Source of the DNA: Candidatus Daviesbacteria bacterium
GTDB taxonomy: Bacteria; Patescibacteriota; Microgenomatia; Daviesbacterales; UBA10151
Assembly (NCBI GenBank): GCA_030699125.1
Contig: JAUYKM010000009.1
Location: forward strand, 108,647 to 172,646
Direction of reading: 5' to 3'
DNA length: 64,000 nucleotides
Positions 36,477 through 53,604 of the stretch are shown here, one piece after another. The number at the start of each line of letters is the position of its first letter. Position 1 is the first letter of the stretch. Position numbers and translations under genes: made by a program. A model generated the notes under the pieces. The model searched no databases and had not been told where the DNA came from. It was given only the letters and a program-made list of their open reading frames with translations.

Positions 36477-37232
36477 ATGAATAGACTTTCAGTAGTTTTG
36501 GCAACCTATAACGAGGAAAAAAACTTAGAAGATTGTTTAAGGAGTATTTGTGATATTGCTTGGGAAATTGTTGTAGTAGATGGAGCATCTCAAGATAAAA
36601 CTGTTGCTATTGCCAAAAAGTATGGAGCAAAGGTATCCATAACTGATAATCCGCAAAACTTTCATATTAATAAAAATAAAGCCATAGATAAAGCAGTCGG
36701 AGATTGGATATTTCAGCTAGATGCTGATGAAAGAGTGACAGAAGAGTTAAAAAGAGAGATAAGGCAAGCAATTGGTAAAAATGAGCAAGTAAACGGTTAT
36801 TGGATACCACGAAAAAACTTTTTTTTGGGAAGATTTTTAAAAAAAGGTGGTCAATATCCTGACTATACTTTAAGGTTATATAAAAAGGGTAAAGGGAAAC
36901 TTCCTGCGAAAGATGTGCATGAGCAAGCCGAGGTAGAAGGTAAGGTAGGTTATTTAAAAAATGATTTATTACATATTCGAGATAAAAACTTCTCGACTTA
37001 TATGGACGGATTTAATAGATATACTGACTTAATGGCAAATGATTTGAAAAAGAGAAAAGATGGAAAGTTGTTGTCCTTTTTTAATTTTGTTTTTTTAAAG
37101 CCTGCGATCTGGTTTATGAAAGCATACATTAGACACAAAGGTTTTGAAGATGGATTTCCTGGTTTTATTTTTGCTCTTTTTTCTTCGTTAAGATTTCCTG
37201 TATCATATTTTAAATATCTAACCAATGATTAA
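36477..37232 (+). CDS. GT2-family glycosyltransferase (GT-A, DXD).
   Basis: It carries 'LSVVLATYNEEKNLEDCLRSI...IVVVDGASQDKTVAIAKKYGAKV' and 'WIFQLDADERV'. It is a paralog of genes 23157 and 24060. Confidence 0.75.
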   Translation: MNRLSVVLATYNEEKNLEDCLRSICDIAWEIVVVDGASQDKTVAIAKKYGAKVSITDNPQNFHINKNKAIDKAVGDWIFQLDADERVTEELKREIRQAIGKNEQVNGYWIPRKNFFLGRFLKKGGQYPDYTLRLYKKGKGKLPAKDVHEQAEVEGKVGYLKNDLLHIRDKNFSTYMDGFNRYTDLMANDLKKRKDGKLLSFFNFVFLKPAIWFMKAYIRHKGFEDGFPGFIFALFSSLRFPVSYFKYLTND

Positions 37233-38295
37233 AGTAGCCATAAGTAAGTACCCGCTAATAAGTGCCCATAAAAAAAGAGGTATTGGTTACTATACGCAAA
37301 ATCTTATAGATCAGCTAAAAAAAGATAAATCTATTTCAATTCAGGAATTTGTCAATCAATCTGAGGTAAAAGATACAGATGTAATTCATTATCCCTGGTT
37401 TGATCTGTATTCCCATACCTTACCAATAAAAAATAAATTTCCGACTGTCGTGACAATTCATGATGTGATCCCACTTATTTTTCGGAAGAATTACCCAGTC
37501 GGTATTAAGGGTAAGTTTAATTTCTTTTTGCAAAAAATTTCGCTAAATAATTGTCGGGCCATCATCACTGATTCTGAAGCTTCTAAAAAAGATATCAAGA
37601 AATACCTAAAGATTGAAGACGAAAAAATATTTATTGTATATTTGGCAGTAGATGAATCATTTAAAAAAATAAATGAATCGCAATTAATTCGTTTAAGAAG
37701 AAAATATCATTTACCACAGAGATTTATCCTGTACTCGGGCGATGCCAATTGGACTAAGAACCTCCCTTTTTTGGTAAAAGGCTTTAAAAATTTAGTAAAT
37801 ATAAAAGGGTATGATGATATTAAATTAGTGCTAATTTCAGATGTTTTTTTAAAAAAATTAGATAACATAGATCACCCGGAACTTAATAGTTTAAAAGACA
37901 CTTTAAAATTTATTGAAACAAATTTGGAAGGAAAAGTAATTACACCAGGATTTGTGGAAAAGGATGAATTGGTGGCTTTTTACAATCTGGCAACAGTTTA
38001 TGTTCAGCCTTCTCTTTACGAGGGTTTTGGTTTACCCATACTACAGGCTTTAGCTTGCGGAACTCCGACAGTCTCTTCCAGTGCCGGATCTTTGCCGGAA
38101 GTAGGGGGAAAAACTGCTCTGTATTTTGATCCGAATAATTTAGAACAGTTTAGTTCACTACTAAAAGAAACAATTAATGATGAGTCGTTAAGAAGTAGAT
38201 TAACCATCTTGGGTTTGGAGCAGGCTAAAAAATTTTCCTGGGAAAAAGTAGCGGCGGAAACAAAAAATGTTTATCTAAAAGCTTTAAGGAAGTAG
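37225..38295 (+). CDS. GT4-family (GT-B) glycosyltransferase.
   Basis: It carries 'YEGFGLPILQALACGTPTVSSSAGSLPEV', the canonical GT4 E-x7-E motif. Confidence 0.75.
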   Translation: MIKVAISKYPLISAHKKRGIGYYTQNLIDQLKKDKSISIQEFVNQSEVKDTDVIHYPWFDLYSHTLPIKNKFPTVVTIHDVIPLIFRKNYPVGIKGKFNFFLQKISLNNCRAIITDSEASKKDIKKYLKIEDEKIFIVYLAVDESFKKINESQLIRLRRKYHLPQRFILYSGDANWTKNLPFLVKGFKNLVNIKGYDDIKLVLISDVFLKKLDNIDHPELNSLKDTLKFIETNLEGKVITPGFVEKDELVAFYNLATVYVQPSLYEGFGLPILQALACGTPTVSSSAGSLPEVGGKTALYFDPNNLEQFSSLLKETINDESLRSRLTILGLEQAKKFSWEKVAAETKNVYLKALRK

Positions 38296-38303: not shown

Positions 38304-39449
38304 ATGAAGAAAGATCTCTTAAAAATCATTTATATTTTTTTGACATGGAGAGTGTTATTGATACTTTTTTTATTTTTTGCTATTACATCTGTACCCCTAG
38401 GTTATAAGGATCGTTTTTTAGGGGGAGGAGCTAATCTTTACTCCCTCTCTCCGCAGCTCTTTTCATGGGCTAATTTTGACGGAGAACATTATCTCTCCAT
38501 TGCCTATATAGGTTATAGAGGTTTGGAACAAGCCTTTTTCCCGGTTTATCCTATGTTAATTTCATTTTTGAGTAAACCGTTTGTAAATGATATTTATTCA
38601 TCATTAGTATTTGGAACAGTTGTGGGAATAATTATATCCAGTGTGGCTTTCTTTTTGGCATTAATAATTTTGTGGAAGACAATCAGAATAGACTATTCTA
38701 AAAATATTGCTTTCTTAACACTGACTGCTCTTATATTGTTCCCTACCTCTTTCTATTTCGGAGCGGTTTATAGTGAGTCGATATTCCTACTTTTATCGGT
38801 ACTATCATTCTATTTTGCTAAAAGAAATAAATGGGTAATGGCATCTATTTTTGGCTTTATAGCTTCGGCCACCAGAATCTTTGGATTGCTACTTTTACCC
38901 GCACTGTTAATAGAAGCATATCAGAGGAGAATTCCTTTTAAGAAAATTGTCTGGCTTTTCATTATTCCGTTGGGCCTGGGAGTATATATGTTATATCAAA
39001 ATTTAACAGTGGGGGATCCTTTGGCTTTTTACCATCTACAAAAAATAGTAGGAGAACAACATCAGTCTGGGCTAACTATTCTGCCGCAGGTATATTTTAG
39101 ATACCTTAAAATGCTTTTAACTGTTGATATGGCGAATCCCATCTATCAGACAATTCTATTAGAATTTGTTGTGGGGATAGTATTTTTTCTGCTACCAATT
39201 TACGGATATTTCAAAAAGGTGAAACTGTCTTATCTTTTCTATGCTATGGTAGGTTTTTTACTGCCATCAATTCAGGGTAGTTTTTCATCTGTACCGCGGT
39301 ATGTAATTGTTTTCTTTCCGTCATTTTTGATTATTGCTTTATGGCTTGAAAAATTGCCTCAAGTTTTAAGATTAATTATTTTTTTAGGAATGTCAATTGC
39401 GTTATTTGTAGAAACAACTCTTTTTCTGAGAGGATATTGGGTCGCATGA
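38304..39449 (+). CDS. Polytopic membrane protein, a PIG-V (GPI mannosyltransferase 2, GT76)-like GT-C candidate.
   Basis: 'SWANFDGEHYLSIAYIGYRGLEQAFFPVYPML' resembles the WDaeHfl...GY..E...AFFP signature of the Mannosyl_trans2 family. It has about 9-10 TM helices. Confidence 0.45.
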   Translation: MKKDLLKIIYIFLTWRVLLILFLFFAITSVPLGYKDRFLGGGANLYSLSPQLFSWANFDGEHYLSIAYIGYRGLEQAFFPVYPMLISFLSKPFVNDIYSSLVFGTVVGIIISSVAFFLALIILWKTIRIDYSKNIAFLTLTALILFPTSFYFGAVYSESIFLLLSVLSFYFAKRNKWVMASIFGFIASATRIFGLLLLPALLIEAYQRRIPFKKIVWLFIIPLGLGVYMLYQNLTVGDPLAFYHLQKIVGEQHQSGLTILPQVYFRYLKMLLTVDMANPIYQTILLEFVVGIVFFLLPIYGYFKKVKLSYLFYAMVGFLLPSIQGSFSSVPRYVIVFFPSFLIIALWLEKLPQVLRLIIFLGMSIALFVETTLFLRGYWVA

Positions 39450-40699
39450 AAAGATATATCAAAGAATTAATCACACATCCGTTATTTTCTGGAAGTGCCA
39501 TTATGGTGATTGGAAGCAATGCCATAAACGTTCTCAACTATTTATACCATTTACTCATGGGAAGAATGTTGGGACCTTCCTTTTATGGAGAATTGGCTGC
39601 CCTTATCTCTTTCATGGGTCTTTTGGCGGTCATCCCCTCCTCTCTTAGCTTAGTAATTATCAAGTATGTTTCTGCCGCAAAAAATAAAAAAGAAACGGCC
39701 AGTTTAATAAAATGGCTACAAGCAAGAGGTATCAAAGTGTCAATGATTATGTTTGGTTTTACCTTAATCATATCTCCCATAATTGCCAACTTTTTACATA
39801 TAGGTAAGATTAGTTACTTAATATTAATTGCTGTATCATTTTTATTTTCCATTCAAACTTTAATTAATAGATCAATTCTTCAGGGATTATTAAAGTTTAA
39901 AGAGACAGTGTTGACTATTCTTTCAGAATCAATTGTTAAATTAGCCAGCAGTATGGTGTTAATATTTATCGGGTTTCGAGTAGGCGGAGCTATGTTGGCT
40001 TTAGCAATCTCTGTATTCCTAGGATGGTATATGACAACGGTTTATCTGAAAGGTAGTTTGCAGGGTCAAGGAGAATACTCTCCCAATATTAAAAAGATGC
40101 TGATGTTTAGTATTCCCGTTATATTACAATCATTGGCTACATCCTCCATTTATTCGTCAGATGTACTTTTAGTTAAACACTTTTTTACATCACACGACGC
40201 TGGGATTTATGCTTCCCTTTCAACTTTAGGAAAAATTATTTTTTTTGGGGCTGCGCCAATTGGGTCAGTAATGTTCCCACTTGTTTCCAAAAGACAATCT
40301 CAGGGACAGGATTATAGAAAAATATTTATCTATAGTTTATTGGGTACATCGCTTTTAGCAAGTGGAGTATTGTTAATATATTGGTTATTTCCAGAGCTTG
40401 CTGTCAGCTTACTTTATGGTTCTGCGTATTTAGAGGCTACTAGTCTATTAATTTGGTTTGGAATTTTTATCACTCTTTTTACACTATCATTTCTAATTAT
40501 TAATTATGGGCTTTCGTTGGGTAGAACTTCAGTTGTTATTTTTCCCCTGATTGCTGCCTTTTTACAAATTATAATGATTTGGTTTTATCATCAAACTCTA
40601 CTTGAGGTAATAATTATTTCTCTAGTAATCTCTGCTTTACTACTAGTAAGTTTGATTATATACTCTCTTTATGATTCGGGAGGCTCAAAAAAGAACTAG
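39437..40699 (+). CDS. MOP-superfamily oligosaccharide flippase (Wzx-like).
   Basis: It has 12-14 TM helices. 'GSNAINVLNYLYHLLMGRMLGPSFYGELAALISFMGL' is typical of the polysaccharide biosynthesis / flippase family. Confidence 0.65.
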   Translation: MGRMKRYIKELITHPLFSGSAIMVIGSNAINVLNYLYHLLMGRMLGPSFYGELAALISFMGLLAVIPSSLSLVIIKYVSAAKNKKETASLIKWLQARGIKVSMIMFGFTLIISPIIANFLHIGKISYLILIAVSFLFSIQTLINRSILQGLLKFKETVLTILSESIVKLASSMVLIFIGFRVGGAMLALAISVFLGWYMTTVYLKGSLQGQGEYSPNIKKMLMFSIPVILQSLATSSIYSSDVLLVKHFFTSHDAGIYASLSTLGKIIFFGAAPIGSVMFPLVSKRQSQGQDYRKIFIYSLLGTSLLASGVLLIYWLFPELAVSLLYGSAYLEATSLLIWFGIFITLFTLSFLIINYGLSLGRTSVVIFPLIAAFLQIIMIWFYHQTLLEVIIISLVISALLLVSLIIYSLYDSGGSKKN

Positions 40700-41495
40700 C
40701 CTGATTTCCATAATAGTTCCGGCTTTTAATCAGGAAAAAACCATAGTTCATGATTTAAAAAAAATACATCAAGTTCTTGAGAAACTAAGATATAGCTCTG
40801 AACTTATTTGTGTGGTTGACGGCATGTTGGATAGAACCTTTGAGAAAGCCACCAAGTTTGCCAAAGAATCCCCCCGTATTAAGGTAGTGGGATACGAGAA
40901 AAATAAGGGTAAGGGTTATGCCATACGTTATGGCATAGCGGAAAGTAAGGGGGATATTGTGGGCTTTATAGATGCGGGGATGGATTTAAATCCAAATGGA
41001 TTATCGATGCTTCTTGAGCATTTTGAATGGTACAATGCCGATATTATTGTTGGTTCTAAAAGACACCCTGTTTCTAAGGTGATTTATCCTTGGCAAAGAA
41101 GAGTCCTTTCGCTTGGCTATCAAATTTTAGTAAGATTATTGTTTGGTCTTCGGGTAAGAGACACACAGGTGGGAATGAAATTTTTTAGAAGAGGAGTATT
41201 AAAAAAAGTTTTGCCAAGATTGTTGGTAAAAGAATATGCTTTTGATGTAGAGATGTTGGCCGTTTCCAAATACTTGGGGTTTAATCGAATTTTCGAGGCA
41301 CCTGTAGATATCAAGTTGAGATTTGGGGGAGCATCTACCATTACCAGTCAAAAATTCTTAAGAACAGTCTTGGCTATGTTTTGGGATACTTTGGCAGTAT
41401 TTTATAGGTTGAAAATTCTGAGATACTATTCCGACAAAAATAAGAGAAGATGGAAATTTGACCCGGAGTTAAATTTCAGAATAAATATCGGATGA
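40671..41495 (+). CDS. GT2 polyprenyl-phosphate sugar synthase (Dpm1/GtrB-like; dolichyl or undecaprenyl-phosphate hexosyltransferase).
   Basis: It carries 'ISIIVPAFNQEKTI', 'VVDGMLDRTFEKA', 'EKNKGKGYAIRYG' and 'FIDAGMDLNP' (DXD), plus a C-terminal 'RFGGAS' region. Its 3' end overlaps the downstream GT-C-like gene by 4 nt. Confidence 0.7.
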   Translation: MIREAQKRTSLISIIVPAFNQEKTIVHDLKKIHQVLEKLRYSSELICVVDGMLDRTFEKATKFAKESPRIKVVGYEKNKGKGYAIRYGIAESKGDIVGFIDAGMDLNPNGLSMLLEHFEWYNADIIVGSKRHPVSKVIYPWQRRVLSLGYQILVRLLFGLRVRDTQVGMKFFRRGVLKKVLPRLLVKEYAFDVEMLAVSKYLGFNRIFEAPVDIKLRFGGASTITSQKFLRTVLAMFWDTLAVFYRLKILRYYSDKNKRRWKFDPELNFRINIG

Positions 41496-43387
41496 TTTTA
41501 TTTGACTACATACGTTTCCTTGTATTTTGCTTTCTGATAATTATTCCAGTGGGCGAATTAGTCTTAAGAGTAATAGGTTTTAGGGGCAAGTTTTGGGAGA
41601 CTCTTTTAATAACAACAAATATTGGTTTTATTTTTACTACTCTGGTCGTCTATATTGCGGGTTTAATAGGAATAAATAATATTCTTCCGGCATTAATCCT
41701 ATTACCCTTTTTTCACCTATTAATATTTAGATCTAATTTTTTTGTTAAATTGGTAAGTAAAAAGATAAGTTTAGACATTGTTCTTTTAATTATTATTGCT
41801 GCTGTTGTCATACTACAGGGAGCCCTTAATTTTTATTCAGGCGAAATTCTTCCAGAGGGTATTAGGCTAACAGCAGGACATGCTCATGACAGTTTATGGC
41901 ACATAAGTCTAATAAATAATCTCAAAATACAAATACCTCCGGAAAACCCAATTTATTCAGGGACTTTATTAACTAATTATCATTATTTCACTGATATTTT
42001 TATGGCTTTTGTTTCAAATTTTACGAGTATATCAACTCTTGGCATTTATTTTAAGATAATGGGACCATTTCTGCTTATACTATTTAGCGGTTCGGTTTTT
42101 CTTCTTTCTCTAAGATTGACTGCCAATAAGATTCTCTCCTACATGGCAATTCTTTTAACTGTTCTGAGCAGTAATCTATATTATTTAATAGGAATATTTT
42201 ATGAAAATGCCAAAATTACCCCTTCTGTATTTTGGGTGGATGAATTTGCTACTAGGATGACCAATTTACAGCTTTTGGCATCCTATATAGTCATACTCAC
42301 TGTTCTATACCTAATGCTTATTTTCAGAGAAAAATTTTATATGAAAATCACATTAATCTTATCAATTATCATCTCCTCCCTTTTAGGATTCAAAGCATAC
42401 GGTTTCATACTTATTATGCTATCGTTACTAATTCTTTTTATCTATAGAAGAAGCTTTAATTATTTAAAGCTTAGTTTAGCAAGTATTTTTTTCTCACTTA
42501 TTATTTATAAAAATAGTATCTCTTCAAGCAACTTCCCTTTCATTTTTATGCCCTTTTGGTTTATCAAAAATATGTTTGAGACTGGAGATCATCTAAATTA
42601 CTCAATATGGGAATTAAAAAGACAAACCTATCTTCAGGATAATAACTTTCTTCGTATAGGTACCCTTTACATTGAAGGAATTATAGTTTTTCTTTTAGGA
42701 AATTTAGGAGGAAAAATAGCGGGTTTTTTAACTATATTTCAAAAATATCAAAAAGATAAAATTGATATAATCATAATTCTGACATTGGTATCCGTTTTTG
42801 GAACTTTAATTCCCTGTATCTTTCTCCAAAAGGGAATAGTTTGGAATACCATTCAATTTTTTTATTATTCCTACCTTTCGCTTTCTCTGCTTTTCACACT
42901 TTTTATCTCAAGATTATTGTTAAGAGCAAAACTTATCACATTAATAATTCTCGCCTTTATTTGGGGAACCTTGCTTCCTGGTGTTTTCTATACTTTAGAT
43001 TTATATTCCCCAAATAAATCTTCTATCCAAAACCGCTCAGCTTTAATTGATGCATCTTTTTTTCTTAAGAATCAAGATAAAGGTAATGTTGTGGTAGACC
43101 CTTTATATTATCAGGATTCATTGATTCCGGCTTTATCAGGACAATCAGTATTTATGGCAGATTCAACCCAATTGAATCTCTTGCTTATAAATGATGATGA
43201 TCGGGATAGAGATCTAAGGAATTTTTTTGATGACAAGCTAGAAGAAAATAAATTTAATTTTCTTGAAAATAACAATATTAGATATATAATTTCCAATGAG
43301 GGCAGAATTTTTTTGGATAAAATAATGCAATTAAAAAAAGTTTATTCTAATTCAGAAATTAGTATTTACAAAAATATTTCTAAATAA
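41492..43387 (+). CDS. Family-C polytopic membrane protein (GT-C-like paralog), immediately downstream of a GtrB-like GT2.
   Basis: It carries 'TAGHAHDSLWHISLINNLKIQIPPENPIYSGTLLTNYHYFTDIF' and has multiple TM helices. Confidence 0.55.
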   Translation: MILFDYIRFLVFCFLIIIPVGELVLRVIGFRGKFWETLLITTNIGFIFTTLVVYIAGLIGINNILPALILLPFFHLLIFRSNFFVKLVSKKISLDIVLLIIIAAVVILQGALNFYSGEILPEGIRLTAGHAHDSLWHISLINNLKIQIPPENPIYSGTLLTNYHYFTDIFMAFVSNFTSISTLGIYFKIMGPFLLILFSGSVFLLSLRLTANKILSYMAILLTVLSSNLYYLIGIFYENAKITPSVFWVDEFATRMTNLQLLASYIVILTVLYLMLIFREKFYMKITLILSIIISSLLGFKAYGFILIMLSLLILFIYRRSFNYLKLSLASIFFSLIIYKNSISSSNFPFIFMPFWFIKNMFETGDHLNYSIWELKRQTYLQDNNFLRIGTLYIEGIIVFLLGNLGGKIAGFLTIFQKYQKDKIDIIIILTLVSVFGTLIPCIFLQKGIVWNTIQFFYYSYLSLSLLFTLFISRLLLRAKLITLIILAFIWGTLLPGVFYTLDLYSPNKSSIQNRSALIDASFFLKNQDKGNVVVDPLYYQDSLIPALSGQSVFMADSTQLNLLLINDDDRDRDLRNFFDDKLEENKFNFLENNNIRYIISNEGRIFLDKIMQLKKVYSNSEISIYKNISK

Positions 43388-43388: not shown

Positions 43389-44498
43389 ATGAATATTCTA
43401 ATCTTATCTTGGAGAGGACCGGGGCATCCACATGCTGGGGGGGCGGAAATTTCAACTCATGAACACGCCAAGGGTTGGATAAAAGCTGGGCATCAGGTAA
43501 CACTCTTCACCTCCTATTATATAGGTGCGAAGAAGGAGGAGAAAGTAGATGGAATTAAAATAATTAGACAAGGTGAGCAAGTTCTAGGAGTACATCTAAG
43601 AGCAATATCCTGGTATCTTTTTGGTAATCACCCCAAATTTGATATTGTAATTGATCAGTTCCATGGGATACCTTTTTTTACACCACTTTATGTCCGAGTA
43701 AAAAAATTAGCTTTTATTCATGAGGTGGCAAAAGATGTTTGGAAAACAAATTTCAGCTTAATTCCTGCAACTTTAGGTGAAGTTTTTGAGTCCTACGTAT
43801 TTAAACTTTATAAAAATATTCCCTTTATGACGGTATCGCATTCAACAAGAGAAGATCTTATTAGTTGGGGGATTCCGGATAAAAATATCACAATCATACA
43901 TAACGGCGTTACAGTTCCTAAAACGCTTAAACCAATGGCTAAAGAAAAGAAAAAGACAATAATTTTTTTGGGGGCCATCAGTAAGGATAAAGGGATTGAG
44001 AAGGCAATTAATGTTTTTTCAATTATTAATAATAAAGAGAGAGATTGGCAATTTTGGGTAGTAGGAAAGTCAGATCAACCATATATGTTAAAGCTCAAGA
44101 GTTTATCAAGAAAATTAGGTCTTTCAAGTAAAATAAAATTTTTTGGTTTTATTTCGGAAGATAAAAAATTTGAATTTTTATCAAAGGCTCATATTTTAAT
44201 AAATCCTTCTATTAGGGAGGGATGGGGGTTGGTGGTAATTGAAGCTGCAAGAATGGGTACACCTACTGTAGCATTTAATGTTCCGGGTCTTAGGGATTCA
44301 ATTATTAATAATAAAACTGGGATTCTCTGTTCTGATAATAGTGTAGAAAATTTAGCCAAAAATATTTTTAATCTGCTGGAAAATAAGAAAGAATATGATC
44401 GGATCAGAAAAAATGCCCTTCTTTGGAGTGAAAACTTTTCTTGGGATAAAGCTGTAAAAAAAAGTTTAGAGCTGATTGAGATGATTGACAAGGGATAG
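43389..44498 (+). CDS. GT4-family (GT-B) glycosyltransferase.
   Basis: The N-terminal 'ILILSWRGPGHPHAGGAEI' and C-terminal 'REGWGLVVIEAARMGTPTVAFNVPGLRDSI' give it away. Confidence 0.75.
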   Translation: MNILILSWRGPGHPHAGGAEISTHEHAKGWIKAGHQVTLFTSYYIGAKKEEKVDGIKIIRQGEQVLGVHLRAISWYLFGNHPKFDIVIDQFHGIPFFTPLYVRVKKLAFIHEVAKDVWKTNFSLIPATLGEVFESYVFKLYKNIPFMTVSHSTREDLISWGIPDKNITIIHNGVTVPKTLKPMAKEKKKTIIFLGAISKDKGIEKAINVFSIINNKERDWQFWVVGKSDQPYMLKLKSLSRKLGLSSKIKFFGFISEDKKFEFLSKAHILINPSIREGWGLVVIEAARMGTPTVAFNVPGLRDSIINNKTGILCSDNSVENLAKNIFNLLENKKEYDRIRKNALLWSENFSWDKAVKKSLELIEMIDKG

Positions 44499-44528: not shown

Positions 44529-45584
44529 GTGATGAAAAATAAGATACTCGTAACAGGAGCAGGTGGATTTATTGGTCACCATATGGTCAAATTCCTCAAA
44601 GAAAAAGGGTTTTGGGTGAGAGGAGTGGATATTAAGGAGCCGGAATTTGAATCTACTGTCGCTGATGAATTTTTACTTTTGGATTTAAGAGACAAAGAAA
44701 ATACTCTAAAGGTAACAAGAGGTATCGATCATGTATATAATTTTGCTGCCAATATGGGCGGAATTGGCTTTATTGAGACTGTTCATGCTGAAGTAATGAG
44801 GGATAATGTTTTAATTAATACGCATCTTTTAGAAGCATCCCTTATGAATGGAGTAAAGAAATTCTTCTTTGCTTCATCTGCCTGTATTTATCCAAAATAC
44901 CTTCAAGAGGGAGAAGAAAATACTGGTTTAAGAGAATTTAATGCTTACCCTGCTGATCCAGATAATGAATACGGTTGGGAAAAATTATTTACTGAACGCC
45001 TCTGCTATAACTATTGGACAGACTTTGGTTTGGAAACTAGAGTTGCCAGATTTCATAATGTTTATGGACCATTAGGTACTTGGCAAGGTGGTAGGGAGAA
45101 ATCTCCAGCAGCCCTTTGTAGAAAAATTGCAGAGGCAGAAAACAATGGGGAAATTGAGGTTTGGGGAGATGGTAACCAGACAAGATCATATTGTTTTGTA
45201 TCAGATTGTGTAGAAGGGGTATATAGATTGATGAATTCCGATGTAAGAAAACCTATTAATGTCGGATCTGATAGACTGATTTCCATTAATGAAATGATTG
45301 AAATTATTTCACAGATCGCTGGGAAAAATATCAGAAAAAGATATGATTTAACCAAACCTCAAGGAGTACGCGGTAGGAATTCCAACAATGATCTTATTCG
45401 TTATCTATTTGATTGGGAACCTAAGATTCCTTTGGAAGCAGGATTAAAACAGACTTATTTTTGGATTAAATCGCAAATCGATAAAGGAAAATTAATAAAA
45501 AAAAGTAAGGCAAATGGTGAAGATATCCCTAAAAAGAAAGAAAATGCAAGAAAAATTAGGAACAGAAAAGTAATAGTTATATAA
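44529..45584 (+). CDS. GDP-mannose 3,5-epimerase homolog (GME family, NAD-dependent SDR).
   Basis: It carries 'ILVTGAGGFIGHH'. A long near-collinear match to plant and bacterial GME is visible from memory: 'DHVYNFAANMGGIGFI', 'FFFASSACIYP', 'RFHNVYGPLGTWQGGREKSPAALCRK', 'VWGDGNQTRSYCFVSDCVEG', 'PINVGSDRLISINEM', 'QGVRGRNSNNDL' and 'YFWIKSQI'. There is an AGGTG Shine-Dalgarno sequence 4 nt upstream. Confidence 0.8.
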   Translation: MMKNKILVTGAGGFIGHHMVKFLKEKGFWVRGVDIKEPEFESTVADEFLLLDLRDKENTLKVTRGIDHVYNFAANMGGIGFIETVHAEVMRDNVLINTHLLEASLMNGVKKFFFASSACIYPKYLQEGEENTGLREFNAYPADPDNEYGWEKLFTERLCYNYWTDFGLETRVARFHNVYGPLGTWQGGREKSPAALCRKIAEAENNGEIEVWGDGNQTRSYCFVSDCVEGVYRLMNSDVRKPINVGSDRLISINEMIEIISQIAGKNIRKRYDLTKPQGVRGRNSNNDLIRYLFDWEPKIPLEAGLKQTYFWIKSQIDKGKLIKKSKANGEDIPKKKENARKIRNRKVIVI

Positions 45585-45617: not shown

Positions 45618-47990
45618 ATGTTGGATTATTCAACAATCGCTTGGATTAAAATTATAGTTTTTTTGATTCCCATTTGGTTTACAGGAATAATAGTGGTTCG
45701 ATCTATCGTTAAGAGACAGAGAGTCGAGCTGGTCCTTCCTGTAGGCTTAATAGTGGGGCTTTCCCTATATGTTTTTTTCTTAAACAGTTTGTCATATATT
45801 TTAACTCCTCCTTGGAGCATCTTAATCTCTTACATAATTTTTCCCATGATAGGATTTATCTTTTGGAGAGTTTGTAAATTTGATAAGTGGGATTTGCTCA
45901 ATGGTAAGATATTATTCGTCTACCTTTTATCACTTTTATTGTGGACAAGCTTATTCATTTGGAAAGGTAATTTTGCTTTAATTGGAAGCGATACAAATCT
46001 TTATTATTCTGTTGCGCATACATTCTTAAATGGTAATTTCCCTCCCAAAACGCCATGGCAGCCGGATCTATCATTAGTTTATCATCTTGGAACCTTTGAA
46101 CTATTAGGTGCTTTTTATTATTTTACAAATCTCCCGTTTCAATTTCTACATATTTTCTTTTCTGCTATTATGATTCTTGCATGTTCGCAGATTATTATTT
46201 GGCTTTGGAAAAGACATGAGTCCTTCATTTCAGTAACTATAATAAATTTAGCAGTTGCTGTAATTTTTATCAGTTTTGGTTTCTTTAAAATAGTGATTCC
46301 CGTCTTTCCTTTAAAATTTCCAAATATACCCTCGATTCATGAGTTTTTTTTATATATCAGAAACCTGCCTACTGTTAATCAGTCAATTGAAGTATATGGA
46401 GCCGCGATTAATTTGGATGGTCTAATTTATTTCATTTTTCATATTTTTGGAATTTCCATATTTATAGCCCTTTTAGCTTTAGTAGTTAATCTCAAAAAGG
46501 AAACCATATATTTGGGATTTACAGTTTTCCTAATTTGTTTGGCTTCCTTAGCTATTATAAATGAATCATTATTTATTGGAGCCTCCTCGTTAATAGTAAT
46601 AAGTTTAATTTATTTGCTTAAGGAGAAAGTTCTTTTAAAAAAGATTAAATTTGTTTCAGTATCTATCCTGATCTTTGGGGTTATTGTTTTGTTTCAAGGG
46701 GGGGTAATAACGAATATTTTGGTAAAAAATGATGCAATTGAATCATCAATAATTTTTTTTCCAAAGAAAGGCCAAATTGAGGGAGATATAGACGCTTATC
46801 ATCTTCATCAACAAATATCAAAAGCATTAGAAGGAAGAAAAAATTGGTATCCTTTCACTTGGATTCATGTGGGAGTTGATTTGTTAATTCTATTTATAAC
46901 TTTATCCATTACTTTCATAAAATATACATCAAATCAGAGGCTGATAATTTTCGCATTATTTCTTGGCGGAGCCCTTTCTTTAATTGCCTATAATAATATA
47001 GTGCCAAAGCTCTTGGCGGCAAATGGTAACAGATTTTTAGGATTTGCATTTATATTTTTTTCATTAGCATTGCTTTACTCCCTTTCTAACTGGATAGGCA
47101 ATTTTCTGAAAGGAAAATCACCCCTTAACTATTTATTAATAATTATTGTGGTGAGTTGGATTTTCTTACCAACGGTTTTGCCGCCATTGACACTTCTTTC
47201 CAAAACTAGATTTGGAGAAAACAAGCTAATTCCCAACGAGTCAATAAGCAGTCCTGGGATTCTGTGGTTGAGAAATAATGCAAATTTTTCCAACAGAGTA
47301 ATGGTCTTAGATAAAAATGCACCTCATCCCAGTGGTCAGGCGCGTGCTTTAGTTGAAGCAGGAATTTTTGCACCGGTTTTTACTGGTAACTTTAGAGCTT
47401 ATACTATTGAAGCCTCTCCGGAATATATTGATACAGCATATTCATTAAGCCCATTAGCTTTGCAAAAATTACAAATCTCTCTACTGCTAATCGATGCAGA
47501 TTTTTACCAGATGTTGCACCAAAAAAGAAAGATTCAATTAGATGATGATAAATACTTCGAAAAAGTTTTTGACAATTCCAATATGCAAAATAATTGGGAA
47601 AAAATTTATAAGATAAAAAAGGAATACTTAAAAAATGGAGAAGAATTAAGCGGTACCCTGGAAGAATTATCGGAAAAATTACTAAAAAGGGAAAAAATTT
47701 ATATAGACAATGAGGAAAATTTTAAGTATGATTTTTTAAGAAGACCAATCATATTTATGTTAAGAAATAAGGATTTATACTTTAATCCTCAGTCAGGTGT
47801 ATATTTAAATGTTGAGGCAAAAATTAATCAAAGGACCCCCGAAGAAGATATTAAATATGATTTTTTAATTTTGGGAAATAAAACTGACTCACATGAGGTT
47901 TGTGATTGCAGTGCAGAATTGATATGGAGGGGATTAAATGGTCAGGTTTATTTATGGAGGTCGGAGTATTTTGGCAAAGTGGAAAAATAA
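45618..47990 (+). CDS. Large polytopic membrane protein (790 aa) with a C-terminal soluble domain of about 280 aa; family unknown.
   Basis: It has at least 14 predicted TM helices over about 500 aa, then a hydrophilic C-terminus. Its 3' end overlaps the convergent GT2 gene by 43 nt. Confidence 0.45.
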   Translation: MLDYSTIAWIKIIVFLIPIWFTGIIVVRSIVKRQRVELVLPVGLIVGLSLYVFFLNSLSYILTPPWSILISYIIFPMIGFIFWRVCKFDKWDLLNGKILFVYLLSLLLWTSLFIWKGNFALIGSDTNLYYSVAHTFLNGNFPPKTPWQPDLSLVYHLGTFELLGAFYYFTNLPFQFLHIFFSAIMILACSQIIIWLWKRHESFISVTIINLAVAVIFISFGFFKIVIPVFPLKFPNIPSIHEFFLYIRNLPTVNQSIEVYGAAINLDGLIYFIFHIFGISIFIALLALVVNLKKETIYLGFTVFLICLASLAIINESLFIGASSLIVISLIYLLKEKVLLKKIKFVSVSILIFGVIVLFQGGVITNILVKNDAIESSIIFFPKKGQIEGDIDAYHLHQQISKALEGRKNWYPFTWIHVGVDLLILFITLSITFIKYTSNQRLIIFALFLGGALSLIAYNNIVPKLLAANGNRFLGFAFIFFSLALLYSLSNWIGNFLKGKSPLNYLLIIIVVSWIFLPTVLPPLTLLSKTRFGENKLIPNESISSPGILWLRNNANFSNRVMVLDKNAPHPSGQARALVEAGIFAPVFTGNFRAYTIEASPEYIDTAYSLSPLALQKLQISLLLIDADFYQMLHQKRKIQLDDDKYFEKVFDNSNMQNNWEKIYKIKKEYLKNGEELSGTLEELSEKLLKREKIYIDNEENFKYDFLRRPIIFMLRNKDLYFNPQSGVYLNVEAKINQRTPEEDIKYDFLILGNKTDSHEVCDCSAELIWRGLNGQVYLWRSEYFGKVEK

Positions 47991-48673
47991 ACTTTCCAAA
48001 TGGCTTTTAAAACATTAAAACCATCTCTTAAAGCTCTGATTCCTGATGCCCCACCCTTTCTTCTAGTGTAAGTAATAGGAATTTGTACCAGTTTCATCCC
48101 CATTCTACAAGCCTTAGTGACAGTTTCCGCCTCATATTCAAAATGCCTTTCTTTTAAATCCAGGGCTAGAAAAGCATCTTTTTTAAACCCTTTAAATCCT
48201 GCCATCACATCGGTAATTTTTCTGTCACAAGCGATGGATGTAGCCAAAGACATGATCCAATTGCCGAAATAGTTTCTAAAACTAATAGAACCTTTCTCAA
48301 TTTTTCCCTGACCACTAAATCTGGTACCAATTACTACATCAGCACCTTTATCTAATGCCTCAACAAAAAGAGGAATTTCCTGAGGCTGAAATTGATGGTC
48401 AGTATCTATTTGAACAATATAATTGCCTGCTGCAAGAAGTCCACCTGCCCAAAAATCCGCCCCCTTACCTCTTTTAAAAGGAAATCTTAAGATTCTATCC
48501 ACTTTCATCCTTTTAGCAATTTGGATAGTTTCATCCTTGGAGGCAGCATCAACTACGATAATTTCTATTGGAAAAAACTTTTTCAGAACTTTGCAATCCT
48601 TAATAGTCCTACCAATATTTTTTTCCTCATTGTAAGAAGTCAAAATTATACTGACCATTTTTTTTCTTTTCAT
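47948..48673 (-). CDS. GT2 polyprenyl-phosphate sugar synthase (Dpm1/GtrB-like).
   Basis: It carries 'VSIILTSYNEEKNIGRTI', 'IIVVDAASKDETIQIAK', 'KRGKGADFWAGG' and 'IVQIDTDHQ' (DXD). Confidence 0.7.
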   Translation of the reverse strand: MKRKKMVSIILTSYNEEKNIGRTIKDCKVLKKFFPIEIIVVDAASKDETIQIAKRMKVDRILRFPFKRGKGADFWAGGLLAAGNYIVQIDTDHQFQPQEIPLFVEALDKGADVVIGTRFSGQGKIEKGSISFRNYFGNWIMSLATSIACDRKITDVMAGFKGFKKDAFLALDLKERHFEYEAETVTKACRMGMKLVQIPITYTRRKGGASGIRALRDGFNVLKAIWKVYFSTLPKYSDLHK

Positions 48674-48743: not shown

Positions 48744-49775
48744 ATGCCAGAAAAACCAGCAGAATCAAGATGGCTTTATAATCAACCTACTCCCGGTATT
48801 GTAGAGAATTGGTATAGAAGAAATGAGGCTAAGATAAGAAGCCAATGGATTGACCCTAAAATATTAGATGGTGCTTTCATTATGGCAAGTACTGCAGAAG
48901 AGATGAATGGAACGCTTAATTTTAGATATTCGCAAGATAGAGTGGTCATGACTAGAACTGGTTTAGAGGTACCCAGAAGAGATTCACAACTTTATGATGT
49001 TTGGCAAGCTCACAAAAGAGATATGGAAACTAGAGGAGAACGAGATGGGGCAAAATACAGTGTCAGAAGATCCTCTCCATTTCTGACAGATAGTGAACTT
49101 CAGATTGAAGTTTCTGACTTTAGCTGGTCTGGGATGGAACTAAATAATGATGTCAATATAGGCGTACTACCTGAATCATTAAGAGATGGAATATTGCCTA
49201 CCTTAAGATCGGAAGGATACGTTTTTGAGGGTGAACCTCCTAATAATGCAGTTGTCCAAGGTATTATTACCACCAAAGATAAAAAATTAGTTTTAACAAC
49301 AAGAGCTGTTAATGCACAGTATTATCAGGGAACAGTCTCACCCTCTTTTGAGGAGCAAATAGATAGAGATAAAGATGATGATCCTATCGAAACATATTTA
49401 AGGGCTGTCTCATATTCACCGAAATTAAAAAGAGGTGAAGAATTACGACTGAATGTTAGACCCGAAAATATCAGATTAGTCTCTATGGTTTTAGAACCGC
49501 AGTTTAATGCAGTGGGGTTTGTAGTGTTAGGAGTTTGTGAAGAAGAATCCGAGGAAATAGACGAGACTAAGTTTGGGGTGGATAGATCTGAGTTTAATCC
49601 TGAAAAACCAATTTGGACCTTACCATTGGATGAGCCATCTCAACTTCTCAGAGATTTTTATAATCCACAAGGCTTTAGGTGGCATGGAATTGGTAGGGAG
49701 AGAGTGGTAGATGCTCTTGCATCAGTACTTGGTTATGAGGAAGCACTTGATAGATTCTATAAGGCCAGACCTTAA
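48744..49775 (+). CDS. Hypothetical soluble acidic protein of 343 aa; function unknown.
   Basis: It has no TM segment or signal peptide and no motif I recognise. It contains several Cys/Trp and acidic stretches such as 'GVCEEESEEIDE'. It has its own upstream sigma70-like promoter. Confidence 0.5.
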   Translation: MPEKPAESRWLYNQPTPGIVENWYRRNEAKIRSQWIDPKILDGAFIMASTAEEMNGTLNFRYSQDRVVMTRTGLEVPRRDSQLYDVWQAHKRDMETRGERDGAKYSVRRSSPFLTDSELQIEVSDFSWSGMELNNDVNIGVLPESLRDGILPTLRSEGYVFEGEPPNNAVVQGIITTKDKKLVLTTRAVNAQYYQGTVSPSFEEQIDRDKDDDPIETYLRAVSYSPKLKRGEELRLNVRPENIRLVSMVLEPQFNAVGFVVLGVCEEESEEIDETKFGVDRSEFNPEKPIWTLPLDEPSQLLRDFYNPQGFRWHGIGRERVVDALASVLGYEEALDRFYKARP

Positions 49776-51156: not shown

Positions 51157-52109
51157 AGACAAAGATACTGGTGACAGGTGGGGCGGGATTTATTGGTAGT
51201 GAGGTTGTAAAACAACTTATTGAAAGAGGGTACCAAGTCAGAGTAGCTGATGATTTATCAAAAAAAGAGGCTAAAGTCCCTAAAGAATGTGAGTTCTTGA
51301 AGCTTGATTTGACTAAAAAAGAAGCAGCGTTACGGGCAATGGAAGGGATAGATTATTGCATACATTTGGCAGCCAAAATTGGCGGGATTGGCTATTTTCA
51401 TAAATATCCAGCAACAATACTTTCCGAAAATAATAAAATGTACTCTGCTGTGTTTGAAGCAGCGGTTGCCAAAAAAATAAAAAGAATTATTTATTTATCC
51501 TCATCCATGGTTTTTGAATCAACTAATAGATTTCCCAGTAAAGAGAGTGATTTGGATAAAATTCCCCCTCCGGTCTCAAGTTATGGTTTCTCCAAATTAG
51601 TGGGGGAGTGGTACTGCAGAGCTTTTAGAGACGAATATGGACTCCCTTACACCATCATAAGACCCTTTAATGCTTATGGCATAAATGAAGCTCCAGGAGA
51701 AGAGATAGGTTATGCTCATGTTATCCCGGATTTAATAAAAAAAATATTGTCTGGCCAATATCCGCTGGAACTTTTAGGAAATGGAAGGCAAACCAGATGT
51801 TTTACTCATGTTTCAGATATTACTAGGGGAATAATACTGGCCATGGAATCTGATAAAGCAATTAATGATGATTTCAATATTGGCTCGGAGAAAGAAATGA
51901 GGATGCTAGATTTAGCAGAGCTACTCTGGCGAAAATGTAATGCAGACAAACCATTTAAAGTTAAATATGTAAAAGGCTTTAAATACGATATTAAAAGAAG
52001 AGTACCATCCTCAAAAAAAACAAAAAAAATATTGAAATGGGAACCCAAAAAGAAATTTGAGCAAGAGTTACCGGAAATTATTAATTGGATTAGTCATAGT
52101 ATTTCTTAA
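51153..52109 (+). CDS. NAD-dependent nucleotide-sugar epimerase/dehydratase (extended SDR).
   Basis: It carries 'KILVTGGAGFIGSEVVKQL', the 'YGFSK' active-site YxxxK motif, and 'RPFNAYG'. Its 5' end overlaps gene 49828 by 4 nt. Confidence 0.75.
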   Translation: MKTKILVTGGAGFIGSEVVKQLIERGYQVRVADDLSKKEAKVPKECEFLKLDLTKKEAALRAMEGIDYCIHLAAKIGGIGYFHKYPATILSENNKMYSAVFEAAVAKKIKRIIYLSSSMVFESTNRFPSKESDLDKIPPPVSSYGFSKLVGEWYCRAFRDEYGLPYTIIRPFNAYGINEAPGEEIGYAHVIPDLIKKILSGQYPLELLGNGRQTRCFTHVSDITRGIILAMESDKAINDDFNIGSEKEMRMLDLAELLWRKCNADKPFKVKYVKGFKYDIKRRVPSSKKTKKILKWEPKKKFEQELPEIINWISHSIS

Positions 52110-52839
52110 AATTGTTTAATCTAATCCTTAAAAGATCATATAAAGATGTAATAATATCGTGAGGCAGTTTCACCTTAGTATTTGAGTCATCTCTCCAGGT
52201 TACCGGCATCTCTTTTATATTAAAACCCCTTTTCTTGCCTATAAAAAGTATTTCCGAATCAAAACCCCAACGATCAATCCTTTGCCTTCTAAAAATTTCC
52301 TCGGCTGCTTTTTTTGAAAAGCATTTGAATCCACAAGTAAAATCCAATAGATTAAGGCCCAAGAAAATTTGAGATAACTTTGTAAATCCTTTACCTAATT
52401 TCTCGCGAATTTTCGGCTGATGCATCAATAATTTTGCCCCTCTTTTTTTCCTTGAGCCAATCAAAATATCAAACTTTTTAAGATGCGGAAGGTAATTATC
52501 AAATTCTTCAATCGGTGTAGAAAAATCAATATCTGTGAAAAGCCGGTAATCGCCTTTTGCTTTAAGCATACCGGTTTTGATTGCAAATCCCTTGCCCTTA
52601 TTCATTTGATAAGAAATTAGTTCGAAAAAATGATGAGGAGGTAGTTGCTTCAATATTTTTCTGATTAATTTTAAACTTTCATCTGTACTGCCATCATTTA
52701 CGAGAATAACTTCAGTTGAGAACTTTTTTTGTCTCAAATAATGAAAAAGTAAGGAGAGATTAGCAATTCTTCCCCCTTCGTTATAAAAGGGAATAATAAT
52801 AGATAAAAAAGGAATATCAATTTTTTTTCTTCTCTTCAT
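52090..52839 (-). CDS. GT2 polyprenyl-phosphate sugar synthase (Dpm1/GtrB-like).
   Basis: It carries 'LSIIIPFYNEGGRI', 'VILVNDGSTDES', 'NKGKGFAIKTG' and 'LFTDIDFSTP' (DXD). Confidence 0.7.
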   Translation of the reverse strand: MKRRKKIDIPFLSIIIPFYNEGGRIANLSLLFHYLRQKKFSTEVILVNDGSTDESLKLIRKILKQLPPHHFFELISYQMNKGKGFAIKTGMLKAKGDYRLFTDIDFSTPIEEFDNYLPHLKKFDILIGSRKKRGAKLLMHQPKIREKLGKGFTKLSQIFLGLNLLDFTCGFKCFSKKAAEEIFRRQRIDRWGFDSEILFIGKKRGFNIKEMPVTWRDDSNTKVKLPHDIITSLYDLLRIRLNNFKKYYD

Positions 52840-53561: not shown

Positions 53562-53604
53562 AGTATGATGAATTTTGAGAATAATAACATACCAAACATA
53601 AATA

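Follow-up and report, generated by a model that had tools for sequence, protein, structure and literature searches.

Helix-free Dpm1/GtrB-class glycosyltransferases and uncatalogued GT-C families in an envelope-glycosylation island of Candidatus Daviesbacteria

The window (the whole stretch of 64,000 nucleotides analysed here) is almost wholly an envelope-glycosylation island of Candidatus Daviesbacteria (Microgenomates, CPR/Patescibacteria). It carries at least 22 GT-C-type genes, next to which four short Dpm1/GtrB-class GT2 genes (starting at 40671, 47948, 52090 and 57065) are only a small share. An earlier note, whose ORF coordinates agree with the window's ORF list, had proposed that each of these GT2s forms a module with a neighbouring large membrane protein. 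The 4-nt overlaps (ATGA) that it described for 40671/41492 and 55260/57065 are present, and genes 45618 and 47948 do overlap convergently, by 43 nt. Overlaps of 4 nt occur at 12 of the 48 gene junctions in the window and are thus nothing special; no intergenic gap is longer than 85 nt. The supposed membrane partners 41492, 45618 and 55260 are polytopic (~12-15 hydrophobic segments each) and were rightly said to fall outside known families: none matches a Pfam or NCBIfam model, and hmmscan found no match to PMT, PMT_2, PTPS_related or YfhO at E <= 0.01. The loop-1 Asp is invariant in the GT-C proteins, which supports a GT-C fold.

All four short GT2 ORFs match PF00535 (E 7e-20 to 2e-24). Their joint profile aligns over its full length with PfDPMS (5.4e-35), GtrB (4.5e-27) and ArnC (3.5e-25); the remaining GT2 structures align over the N-terminal ~115 residues only. 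A control GT2 from the same window, 36477, finds its best PDB matches in GmaR and SunS and not in DPMS, GtrB or ArnC. The four GT2s are thus Dpm1/GtrB/ArnC-like and not cellulose- or chitin-synthase-like processive enzymes, and the partners are GT-C proteins, not transporters; a two-step lipid-monosaccharide logic is therefore plausible. None of the four has TM helices by hydrophobic-segment prediction. GtrB, ArnC and PfDPMS do have them, and a membrane-anchoring partner is indicated by a single fusion only. TM-less members of the class are known, namely human DPM1, the catalytic domain of mycobacterial Ppm1, and PpgS, whose model has a length of 226 positions. NCBIfam equivalog scores of the GT2s are all far under the cut-offs, and DXD is degenerate in 40671 (DAG) and 57065 (AAD). 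The Dpm1-like GT2s are 76-86% identical to their homologues, compared with ~40-50% for the adjacent GT-Cs, and this far stronger conservation is as expected of shared donor synthases. In related genomes a GT2 directly followed by a PMT_2 gene was seen in 31 cases (locus L003 holds a Pfam-annotated example). Judged by sequence, each of the four GT2s would most likely load one monosaccharide onto polyprenyl phosphate.

Gene 40671 belongs to a conserved block with the order GT2, GT4, PIG-V-like GT-C, MOP flippase, GT2 40671, GT4, all on the forward strand. The first gene, the control GT2 (36477-37232; PF00535 3.8e-24; best PDB matches GmaR, SunS and TarS-type), keeps its position in related operons, has paralogues at 23157 and 24060 outside the Dpm1-like group, and is presumed to be a cytoplasmic glycan-building enzyme. 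The GT4 (GT-B fold) that follows is also kept (37225-38295; Glycos_transf_1 7e-25). The PIG-V-like protein (38304-39449; PF04188 Mannosyl_trans2 1.6e-10; ~10 hydrophobic segments) is the GT-C that the operon regularly keeps: in 32 of 41 loci it lies two genes ahead of the 40671-type GT2. The MOP-superfamily (Wzx/PST-like) flippase (39437-40699; Polysacc_synt_3 2.8e-20, Polysacc_synt 4.3e-18) stands directly upstream of that GT2 in 43 of 44 evaluable loci, and here its 3' end overlaps the GT2 start by 29 nt. GT2 40671 itself (40671-41495; PF00535 3.5e-23), a putative polyprenyl-phosphate monosaccharide synthase, has PfDPMS 5mlz as its best PDB match (1.7e-15, residues 11-228), followed by GtrB and ArnC; it carries a conserved ID(A/S)GMD in place of DXD, and its orthologues are 62-82% identical. 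Directly downstream, a GT4 is found in 23 of 45 operons and a gene of the 631-aa family in 12 of 45. The juxtaposition of 40671 and 41492 is therefore lineage-specific and not a fixed module: the 631-aa gene adds an accessory GT-C to the block in roughly one lineage in four. In the window it is followed by the usual GT4 neighbour (43389-44498; Glycos_transf_1 9e-40) and by an SDR-type nucleotide-sugar epimerase/reductase (44529-45584; PF01370 9.5e-49), whose best NCBIfam match, GDP-L-fucose synthase, is under cut-off (1.5e-40).

The 631-aa protein (41492-43387, +) represents an uncatalogued GT-C-fold family, here called FAMC, with about 2,900 cluster representatives. In a survey across Microgenomates, covering 80 genomes, a MOP gene lies directly upstream of 62 of 101 FAMC genes (62 of 96 by another count) and another FAMC gene upstream of 11 more, and conversely 62 of the 65 MOP genes in these loci have FAMC next downstream. 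A Dpm1-like GT2 precedes just 1 of 101; these neighbourhood classes were assigned with HMMs built from sequences of the window, and in other phyla some of the GT2s so classed as "Dpm1-like" are generic. The canonical Microgenomates cassette also occurs in the window (9361-16262, +), as a MOP flippase (9361-10830; Polysacc_synt_3 8.6e-53), a long FAMC gene with an N-terminal extension of ~490 aa (10846-14265) and a further FAMC gene (14262-16262). The FAMC paralogues of the window match one another at E 1e-46 to 1e-82. A fusion of a MOP protein with FAMC was seen once (P0224, 1639 aa). The regular partner of FAMC is therefore a Wzx-like MOP flippase, and the family probably acts on a flipped lipid-linked glycan, which is most likely its acceptor and possibly its donor. 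Among the best 17 Foldseek matches of FAMC, 14 are STT3/AglB/PglB, with near full-length alignments. FAMC is thus most like the oligosaccharyltransferases (OSTs), yet these use diphosphate-linked oligosaccharides and not monophosphate-linked sugars. At the profile-profile level, FAMC also matches the window's own PMT_2 paralogues (95.5%, E 1.4e-8).

The 790-aa membrane protein (45618-47990, +) is a distant FAMC homologue with an extra C-terminal extension. The two families align over 572 columns in hhalign (97.7%, E 2.3e-12), pairing D125 with D133 and H156 with H164. More than 90 homologues, at about 50% identity, are found in Daviesbacteria, and one protein (P0095), from a Candidatus Daviesbacteria MAG at NCBI, is 100% identical. 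The convergent GT2 47948 (47948-48673, -) resembles DPMS more than the other three do: its residues 6-226 match PfDPMS at 3.3e-17, the NE, DTD, GxR, D..GF and R..G.S motifs being aligned, and AglJ is matched at 1.4e-33, under cut-off. Its orthologues are 81-86% identical and occur with or without the 790-aa gene, so that a fixed module of these two genes is not supported.

The pair 57065/55260 is the part of the modular proposal that stands. GT2 57065 (57065-57757, -), which matches ArnC at 9.7e-10 over residues 5-221, is translationally coupled to the 602-aa GT-C-fold protein (55260-57068, -) of a second uncatalogued family. Their homologues are adjacent in L009, lie in one operon in L010, and are naturally fused in P0091 (795 aa; 54% identity in the GT2 part and 43% in the GT-C part). 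By these comparisons it is the only dedicated pair among the four GT2s. The 602-aa family matches the window's PMT_2 paralogues at 86% (profile-profile). Downstream of 55260 are two paralogous proteins of ~190-200 aa (54689-55294 and 54115-54681, -; 2.7e-29), both of which have one TM helix, at the N-terminus, and no Pfam match. In L005, L009 and L010 the gene after the GT-C likewise encodes a protein of 189-209 aa, giving a kept order of GT2, GT-C and ~200-aa protein in which the last is matched by size and position. The operon is headed by a GFO/IDH/MocA oxidoreductase (57754-58791, -; PF01408 6e-25) resembling WbpB and UDP-GlcNAc 3-dehydrogenase (1.6e-33, under cut-off), which probably modifies the sugar to be loaded. 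The 57065-type operons of relatives also carry DegT aminotransferases and acetyltransferases.

GT2 52090 (52090-52839, -; PF00535 6.8e-20; full-length matches to GtrB at 2.7e-9 and DPMS at 6.5e-9) has no large membrane protein next to it, contrary to what had been proposed. Its neighbours are a convergent SDR epimerase (20-nt overlap) and an upstream SAM-dependent methyltransferase (52836-53669, -; Methyltransf_11 2.6e-18), to which it is translationally coupled by a 4-nt overlap. The pairing of GT2 and methyltransferase is found again in L001, L008, L098, L102 and L119; a gene of the 61435 type is often its neighbour in relatives. The 649-aa polytopic product of 61435 (61435-63384, +) has no Pfam or NCBIfam match and is probably a further GT-C (BLASTP to 55260: 2e-8 over 183 aa).

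These observations are probably, though by no means certainly, best explained by a network in which few donors serve many transferases, as opposed to four one-to-one modules. What the sequences show are folds, family relations and neighbourhood counts, from which substrates, direction of transfer, final acceptor and flipping step are inferred. In the cytoplasm, each TM-less GT2 would move one monosaccharide from a nucleotide sugar to polyprenyl phosphate. The lipid-phosphate-sugars would then cross the membrane and serve outside as donors for the island's many GT-C transferases, including the 631-aa, 790-aa and 602-aa proteins. GT-C 55260 probably anchors its partner GT2 57065 to the membrane, as the fused relative suggests. 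In the 40671 block, cytoplasmic glycosyltransferases would probably make a lipid-linked glycan, the MOP protein would flip it, and GT-Cs would elaborate it outside. This lipid-linked acceptor is hypothetical because neither the window nor two related cassettes revealed an initiating phosphoglycosyltransferase. As to flipping of the donors, the earlier note had seen no GtrA-like flippase, and indeed neither a GtrA/ArnE-type gene nor any small 4-TM ORF was found in the window. It had missed the two Wzx-like MOP flippases at 39437-40699 and 9361-10830.

The donor role of the GT2s would fall away if they were ordinary cytoplasmic GT-A enzymes that extend a diphosphate-linked oligosaccharide in a classical Wzx-dependent locus, the GT-C donors coming from elsewhere. 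Their solubility, low equivalog scores and the atypical DXD in two of four would fit, as would the neighbouring GT4 genes, Wzx-like flippase and sugar-nucleotide enzymes. However, both halves of these proteins, including the acceptor half, are matched by polyprenyl-phosphate glycosyltransferases only, while the truly ordinary GT2 36477 has no such match; the GT2-GT-C fusion and the GT2-PMT_2 adjacency fit donor synthases, and TM-less class members exist. We therefore consider this reading improbable. About equally doubtful is a GtrA role for the MOP protein 39437, which would flip the product of GT2 40671 for the PIG-V-like and FAMC proteins and so complete a three-component system with a flippase of 12-14 TM helices. 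The overlapping frames and near-constant order of the MOP and GT2 genes, the GT-C nearly always included in the same block, and the lack in the window of both a small 4-TM flippase and an initiating enzyme for a diphosphate-linked substrate are consistent with it. On the other hand, the block's other-class GT2 and two GT4s would make a conventional Wzx substrate, which explains the flippase, and a GtrA-like gene could sit elsewhere in the genome. Moreover, the lipid-monophosphate-sugar flippases proposed to date are all small 4-TM proteins, including the one named "MATE", which is described as EmrE/ArnE-like with four helices (PMC11127046).

A reading with a somewhat better, still minor, chance is that FAMC works in the manner of an OST or ligase, as would its homologue, the 790-aa protein: the diphosphate-linked oligosaccharide flipped by the MOP/Wzx protein encoded next to FAMC would be transferred en bloc to an acceptor, whether protein, cell wall or lipid. 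In that case GT2 40671 would adjoin the 631-aa gene by operon packing only and supply other GT-Cs. The MOP gene upstream in 62 of 101 cases, the MOP-FAMC fusion, the Foldseek matches and the rarity of a preceding Dpm1-like GT2 all point this way, as do the three cytoplasmic GT2s and the GT4 directly after FAMC in the cassettes, an arrangement comparable to glycan-building clusters. Against it, WWDYG, the defining motif of OST catalytic subunits, is missing from 40 of 40 FAMC and 22 of 22 790-aa-family sequences, FAMC has no sequence-level OST match, an initiating phosphoglycosyltransferase was not found near the cassettes, and tandem FAMC paralogues are as typical of GT-Cs that add monosaccharides.

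The genetic coupling of FAMC to a Wzx-like flippase parallels the functional coupling of STT3/AglB/PglB (GT66) to flipped lipid-linked oligosaccharides. In contrast to these enzymes, FAMC has two extra N-terminal helices ahead of the catalytic loop and a loop-1 motif of G-H-D-x-x-W-H instead of DxD. The PMT_2 (GT39/GT83-type, PF13231) proteins, which in related genomes frequently follow a Dpm1-like GT2, share with FAMC and the 602-aa family a profile match whose centre is the acidic motif of loop 1 with the helices after it, but the similarity spans only about 130-190 columns. Mycobacterial arabinan and mannan assembly, in which Ppm1 or DPA synthesis feeds AftA-D, EmbA-C, MptA-C and PimE, offers another parallel: the island's few donors could likewise feed many GT-Cs that extend a cytoplasmically primed glycan outside, and in Ppm1, too, a TM-less synthase domain is joined to a membrane partner. 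Unlike that system, the island belongs to a small-genome CPR bacterium, its GT-Cs have no sequence-level relation to Aft, Emb or Mpt, and its cassettes hold a MOP flippase instead of an ABC transporter. Finally, as in the three-component extracytoplasmic systems reviewed in PMC11127046 (GtrA/GtrB/Gtr-type GT-C, CsbB/GtcA/YfhO and ArnC/ArnEF/ArnT), Dpm1/GtrB/ArnC-class GT2s are encoded together with GT-C-fold transferases, in one case as a coupled pair that is fused in a relative. The island differs from those systems in that its synthases lack C-terminal TM helices, the window has no small 4-TM flippase, neither Pfam nor NCBIfam has models for its GT-C families, and four synthases stand against at least 22 GT-Cs, two of the four claimed pairs not being conserved. 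The two-step logic that the few-donor network would follow is already known; the GT-C families are new.

The gene content of the window is that of a glycosylation island. Pfam scans of all large ORFs and an all-against-all BLAST found four PTPS_related GT-C paralogues (2565-9364), nine PMT_2-type GT-C paralogues, a YfhO protein (20671-23100, minus strand), a PIG-M/GT87-like GT-C (25937-27061) and a PIG-V-like GT-C (gene 38304). The same searches identified two flippases of the MOP/Wzx type (genes 9361 and 39437), three GT4s, seven short GT2s falling into two groups, sugar-nucleotide enzymes, and six large membrane proteins without a Pfam match. A 390-aa membrane protein (17881-19053) is weakly similar to a PMT_2 paralogue. 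GT-C genes are extraordinarily dense at 1058-36462, and with the 40-63 kb part included the whole 64 kb carries at least 22 GT-C-type genes. At the end of the window, the only match of a 187-aa ORF (63386-63949, minus strand) is to the central domain of UDP-glucose/GDP-mannose dehydrogenases; the ORF is a fragment or else a second nucleotide-sugar dehydrogenase gene whose true start lies past the window end. The G+C content is about 33% and the genes are densely packed, with no intergenic gap above 85 nt. Protein matches place the organism in the Microgenomates (CPR/Patescibacteria): the 790-aa product of gene 45618 is 100% identical to one encoded on a 360-kb contig of an NCBI "Candidatus Daviesbacteria bacterium" MAG, and the 602-aa product of gene 55260 is 100% identical to an ENA metagenome protein. 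Our ORF map agrees with the ORFs, lengths and overlaps described in the earlier note. The 4-nt overlap is no sign of partnership but a habit of this genome, being present at 12 of 48 gene junctions.

The assignment of four GT2s (40671, 47948, 52090 and 57065) to the Dpm1/GtrB/ArnC class is supported by sequence comparison. All four match the GT-A catalytic domain PF00535 (E 7e-20 to 2e-24), and in the BLAST comparison they are full-length paralogues of each other, separate from the other three GT2s of the window. The closest solved structures for each of them are the P. furiosus Dol-P-Man synthase (PfDPMS), Synechocystis GtrB and ArnC. A profile of the four matches these structures (PfDPMS 5.4e-35, GtrB 4.5e-27, ArnC 3.5e-25) over nearly the whole catalytic domain, at positions 8-235 for PfDPMS and 6-233 for ArnC. 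In comparison, other GT2 structures align with this profile in the N-terminal nucleotide-binding part only, to about position 115-125. The homology thus reaches the acceptor half, which binds the lipid phosphate, beyond the nucleotide-binding half. A residue alignment of 47948 with PfDPMS shows the expected motifs. In contrast, the control GT2 36477 has no DPMS, GtrB or ArnC match and is most similar to GmaR, SunS and TarS-type enzymes. Because of these full-length matches, the motif alignment and the different behaviour of the control, we retain the class proposed in the earlier note, and formation of polyprenyl-phosphate sugars is the most likely activity of the four.

That they are ordinary glycan-extending enzymes appears improbable in view of the match to the lipid-phosphate-binding half, although some features are less typical of the class. 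The DXD motif is DTD in 47948 and DID in 52090 but degenerate in 40671 (DAG, inside a conserved ID(A/S)GMD) and 57065 (AAD). No GT2 exceeds the NCBIfam cut-off of a named equivalog (ArnC, PpgS, AglJ or Dol-P-hexose transferase); the highest score is 116.5 bits for AglJ against a cut-off of 325, and the rest are lower. Processive synthases of the cellulose, chitin or PNAG type, the identity named in the earlier note as fatal to its view, can be dismissed: the proteins are 230-274 aa long, have no TM helix, and do not show the multi-TM channel domain with QxxRW-type processive core of such enzymes; the PgaC match is limited to their N-terminal ~110 residues, and the profiles place them elsewhere. 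GtrB, ArnC and PfDPMS have C-terminal TM helices, whereas no hydrophobic segment was found in any of the four GT2s. In this they resemble the TM-less subtype of polyprenyl-phosphate glycosyltransferases, to which human DPM1, the Ppm1 catalytic domain and PpgS belong. A hydrophobic-moment scan of the four for a C-terminal amphipathic membrane-binding helix gave a clear signal only in 47948 (residues 210-230).

The flagged membrane partners, 41492 (631 aa), 45618 (790 aa) and 55260 (602 aa), are polytopic and belong to no catalogued family, as had been stated: at E <= 0.01 none matches a Pfam or NCBIfam model, including PMT, PMT_2, STT3, YfhO and PTPS_related. The family of 41492, here called FAMC, has 2,940 cluster representatives at E <= 1e-3. 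Its homologues are hypothetical proteins only, and none of the 73 listed carries a GT-C Pfam domain. An AlphaFold model based on 40 FAMC sequences is very confident (pLDDT 92.9); its multi-helix membrane domain superposes on solved GT-Cs of the GT-C_A class, and the top Foldseek ranks are 14 oligosaccharyltransferase (OST) catalytic subunits and three DPY19 entries. D133, in the motif G-H-D-x-x-W-H, does not vary among these 40 FAMC sequences, and hhalign (95.5%) places it on the loop-1 DE motif found in the PMT_2 paralogues of the window. Profile comparison shows the 790-aa protein to be a distant FAMC homologue (97.7% probability, E 2.3e-12, 572 columns); the catalytic Asp and a His coincide in the alignment. 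An acidic residue is similarly conserved in the other two families, as an invariant D125 in the 790-aa family and as D39 in 15 of the 16 sequences of the 602-aa family. From the topology, we infer that in all three families this residue lies outside, in the first extracytoplasmic loop. None of the three proteins is a transporter, which was the other identity held to be incompatible with the original view; Foldseek matches to transporters have a probability of at most 0.07.

FAMC shares with the OSTs STT3, AglB and PglB (GT66) the architecture of a TM domain followed by a C-terminal globular domain. However, the WWDYG motif of these enzymes is missing, since WW[DE] is absent from 40 of 40 FAMC and 22 of 22 790-aa-family sequences. 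Many FAMC members (10846-14265 in the window; P0190, P0198 and others) are 1,000-1,150 aa long, with one N-terminal TM helix and an extension of ~450-500 aa without Pfam match, presumably an extracytoplasmic domain. No fused GT2 domain was found in the longer FAMC homologues; one is fused to a MOP flippase instead.

The earlier note described four repeated modules, in which each GT2 lies beside a large membrane protein. We compared gene order in 10 contigs obtained by exact-protein look-up, 80 genome loci obtained with the FAMC profile, and 46 metagenome loci of at least 9 kb carrying a 40671-type GT2. Only 57065/55260 withstood this comparison, and it is a real module: the two genes are adjacent with a 4-nt overlap in contig L009, lie in one operon in L010, and form a single 795-aa fusion protein in L005, whose identity to the window proteins is 54% in the GT2 part and 43% in the GT-C part. 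Such a fusion has a sensible topology, as the GT2 is cytoplasmic and so is the N-terminus of the GT-C to which it is joined. A protein of 189-209 aa comes after the GT-C in each of the three contigs (L005, 8416-8985; L009, 6797-7426; L010, 6622-7200). Just downstream of 55260, the window has two paralogous proteins of ~190-200 aa (54115-55294, minus strand), each with a single N-terminal TM helix and without a Pfam match. For these single-TM proteins, a role as accessory subunit, carbohydrate-binding module or acceptor is conceivable.

The pairs 40671/41492 and 47948/45618, in contrast, are not conserved units. The 40671-type GT2 (62-82% identical across loci) has a MOP flippase directly upstream in 43 of 44 loci and a PIG-V-like GT-C as the second gene upstream in 32 of 41, while the next gene is FAMC in 12 and a GT4 in 23 of 45 loci; the FAMC homologues are ~40% identical. 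The GT2 47948, at 81-86% identity in relatives, stays in place either with the 790-aa gene (L006-L008) or without it (L001 and many of the metagenome loci). Between 47948 and a nucleotide-sugar dehydrogenase lies a 343-aa soluble protein (48744-49775) without Pfam or NCBIfam match; an unannotated ORF has the equivalent position in L007 (352 aa) and L001 (249 aa). The fourth GT2, 52090, has no membrane neighbour at all, being located between an SDR gene and a methyltransferase gene. It travels with the latter, and in relatives it often adjoins a 61435-type membrane protein. The Dpm1-like GT2/SAM methyltransferase pair (52090-53669, minus strand) is translationally coupled and conserved in L001, L008, L098, L102 and L119, which hints that the sugar or the lipid-sugar donor is methylated. 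A DUF5667 protein with an N-terminal TM helix (53605-54111) marks the same operon boundary in L001, L006, L007, L008 and many metagenome loci. In FAMC-bearing genomes the gene that most often follows a Dpm1-like GT2 encodes a PMT_2-type GT-C (31 cases, counted with a window-derived HMM that also catches some generic GT2s; L003 is a Pfam-annotated example).

FAMC itself is linked to the MOP flippases. Among 101 FAMC genes in 80 genomes, the gene directly upstream is MOP in 62, another FAMC in 11 and a Dpm1-like GT2 in one. In P0224 (1,639 aa), a long FAMC is naturally fused to a MOP flippase of the Polysacc_synt_3 type. In the window, 9361, 10846 and 14262 form a canonical MOP-FAMC cassette. 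Since 9361-10830 and 10846-14265 share a reading frame and are 15 nt apart, a single stop-codon loss would yield a P0224-like fusion. The two MOP proteins of the window have no similarity detectable by BLAST. FAMC, a family of about 2,900 cluster representatives for which Pfam has no model, occurs almost exclusively in Microgenomates. Among L011-L090, a PTPS-MOP-FAMC-GT2x3 cassette is present in many MAGs whose record title reads "uncultured Gammaproteobacteria" or "Pseudomonadales", and in single MAGs titled "Bathyarchaeia", "Clostridia" and "Nevskiaceae". The cassette is typical of Microgenomates, and the taxonomy in these record titles is probably wrong.

These observations raise the tentative possibility that FAMC is an oligosaccharyltransferase or glycan ligase of a new class. 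This OST-like GT-C would have lost WWDYG and become tied to a Wzx-type flippase, and would transfer flipped lipid-linked glycans en bloc to an acceptor on the CPR surface. In a weaker variant, the MOP flippases of these operons may flip lipid-monophosphate sugars. We know of no MOP-superfamily protein with this activity. The Gtr-type three-component system includes a small 4-TM flippase gene. The window has no GtrA/ArnE-type ORF of this kind and no gap above 85 nt that could hide one; such a flippase is likewise missing from two related cassettes, as is an initiating phosphoglycosyltransferase from both the cassettes and the window. The previous statement that no small GtrA-like flippase is evident was thus correct, but it overlooked the MOP gene overlapping the start of 40671. 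That this protein, 39437, moves the lipid-phosphate sugar is nonetheless doubtful: despite its position we found no precedent, and the apparent one, the "MATE" ORF14 of PMC11127046, is EmrE/ArnE-like and has four helices.

The data are best described by a network of donors and transferases rather than by a set of pairs, and the original interpretation is partly supported. Highly conserved TM-less Dpm1-class synthases would charge polyprenyl phosphate with different sugars, and many GT-Cs would use these lipid-phosphate-sugar donors outside the membrane. In the focal operon, the lipid-linked glycan is probably the product of a non-Dpm1 GT2 and two GT4s. The MOP protein would flip it, after which the PIG-V-like GT-C could act on it, as could FAMC or the 790-aa protein in loci that have them. 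The folds, homologies and neighbourhood frequencies behind this picture are observed; its substrates, acceptor, flipping step and membrane recruitment are inferred. Candidate sugar-modifying genes adjoin the synthases: a WbpB-like oxidoreductase by 57065, the methyltransferase with 52090, and a nucleotide-sugar dehydrogenase and an SDR by 47948 and 52090. The NCBIfam scores of the adjoining SDR, dehydrogenase and ATP-grasp genes are all below the cut-offs, and therefore no sugar is assigned. A divergent operon (58877-63384) combines genes for a PylC-like ATP-grasp protein, an SDR and a HAD phosphatase with the gene of a 649-aa membrane protein that is related to 55260. HAD and PylC-like_N genes again lie beside the GT2/GT-C module in L009, and this recurrence suggests an unusual, perhaps amino-acid-modified, sugar.

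This logic is common to the Gtr-type systems and the mycobacterial GT-C pathways, and arabinan and mannan assembly in mycobacteria parallels the use of lipid-phosphate-sugar donors by GT-Cs outside the membrane. The conserved synthase/GT-C linkage of Gtr-type systems is seen here for 57065/55260 only. What is new is the presence of three GT-C families for which databases have no model, the large OST-like FAMC among them; synthases that carry no membrane anchor, with one case of fusion to a GT-C; and the absence of the small flippase, the strong MOP-FAMC linkage and the sheer density of GT-Cs. A literature search for GT-C systems of CPR, Microgenomates or Daviesbacteria found no relevant reports.

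The lack of a GtrA-type gene in the window bears on the open question of how lipid-phosphate sugars cross membranes, and the coupling or fusion of TM-less synthases to GT-Cs provides a simple system in which to study the link between lipid-sugar synthesis and use. En bloc glycan transfer by FAMC, if real, would make it a new class of bacterial glycosylation enzyme and a possible tool for glyco-engineering. The CPR/Patescibacteria are uncultured bacteria with small genomes and a probably episymbiotic lifestyle, and to our knowledge their surface chemistry is essentially unknown. With nearly all of its 64 kb given over to these GT-Cs, two flippases and four lipid-sugar synthases, the window implies that an elaborate glycan coat is put together outside the membrane.
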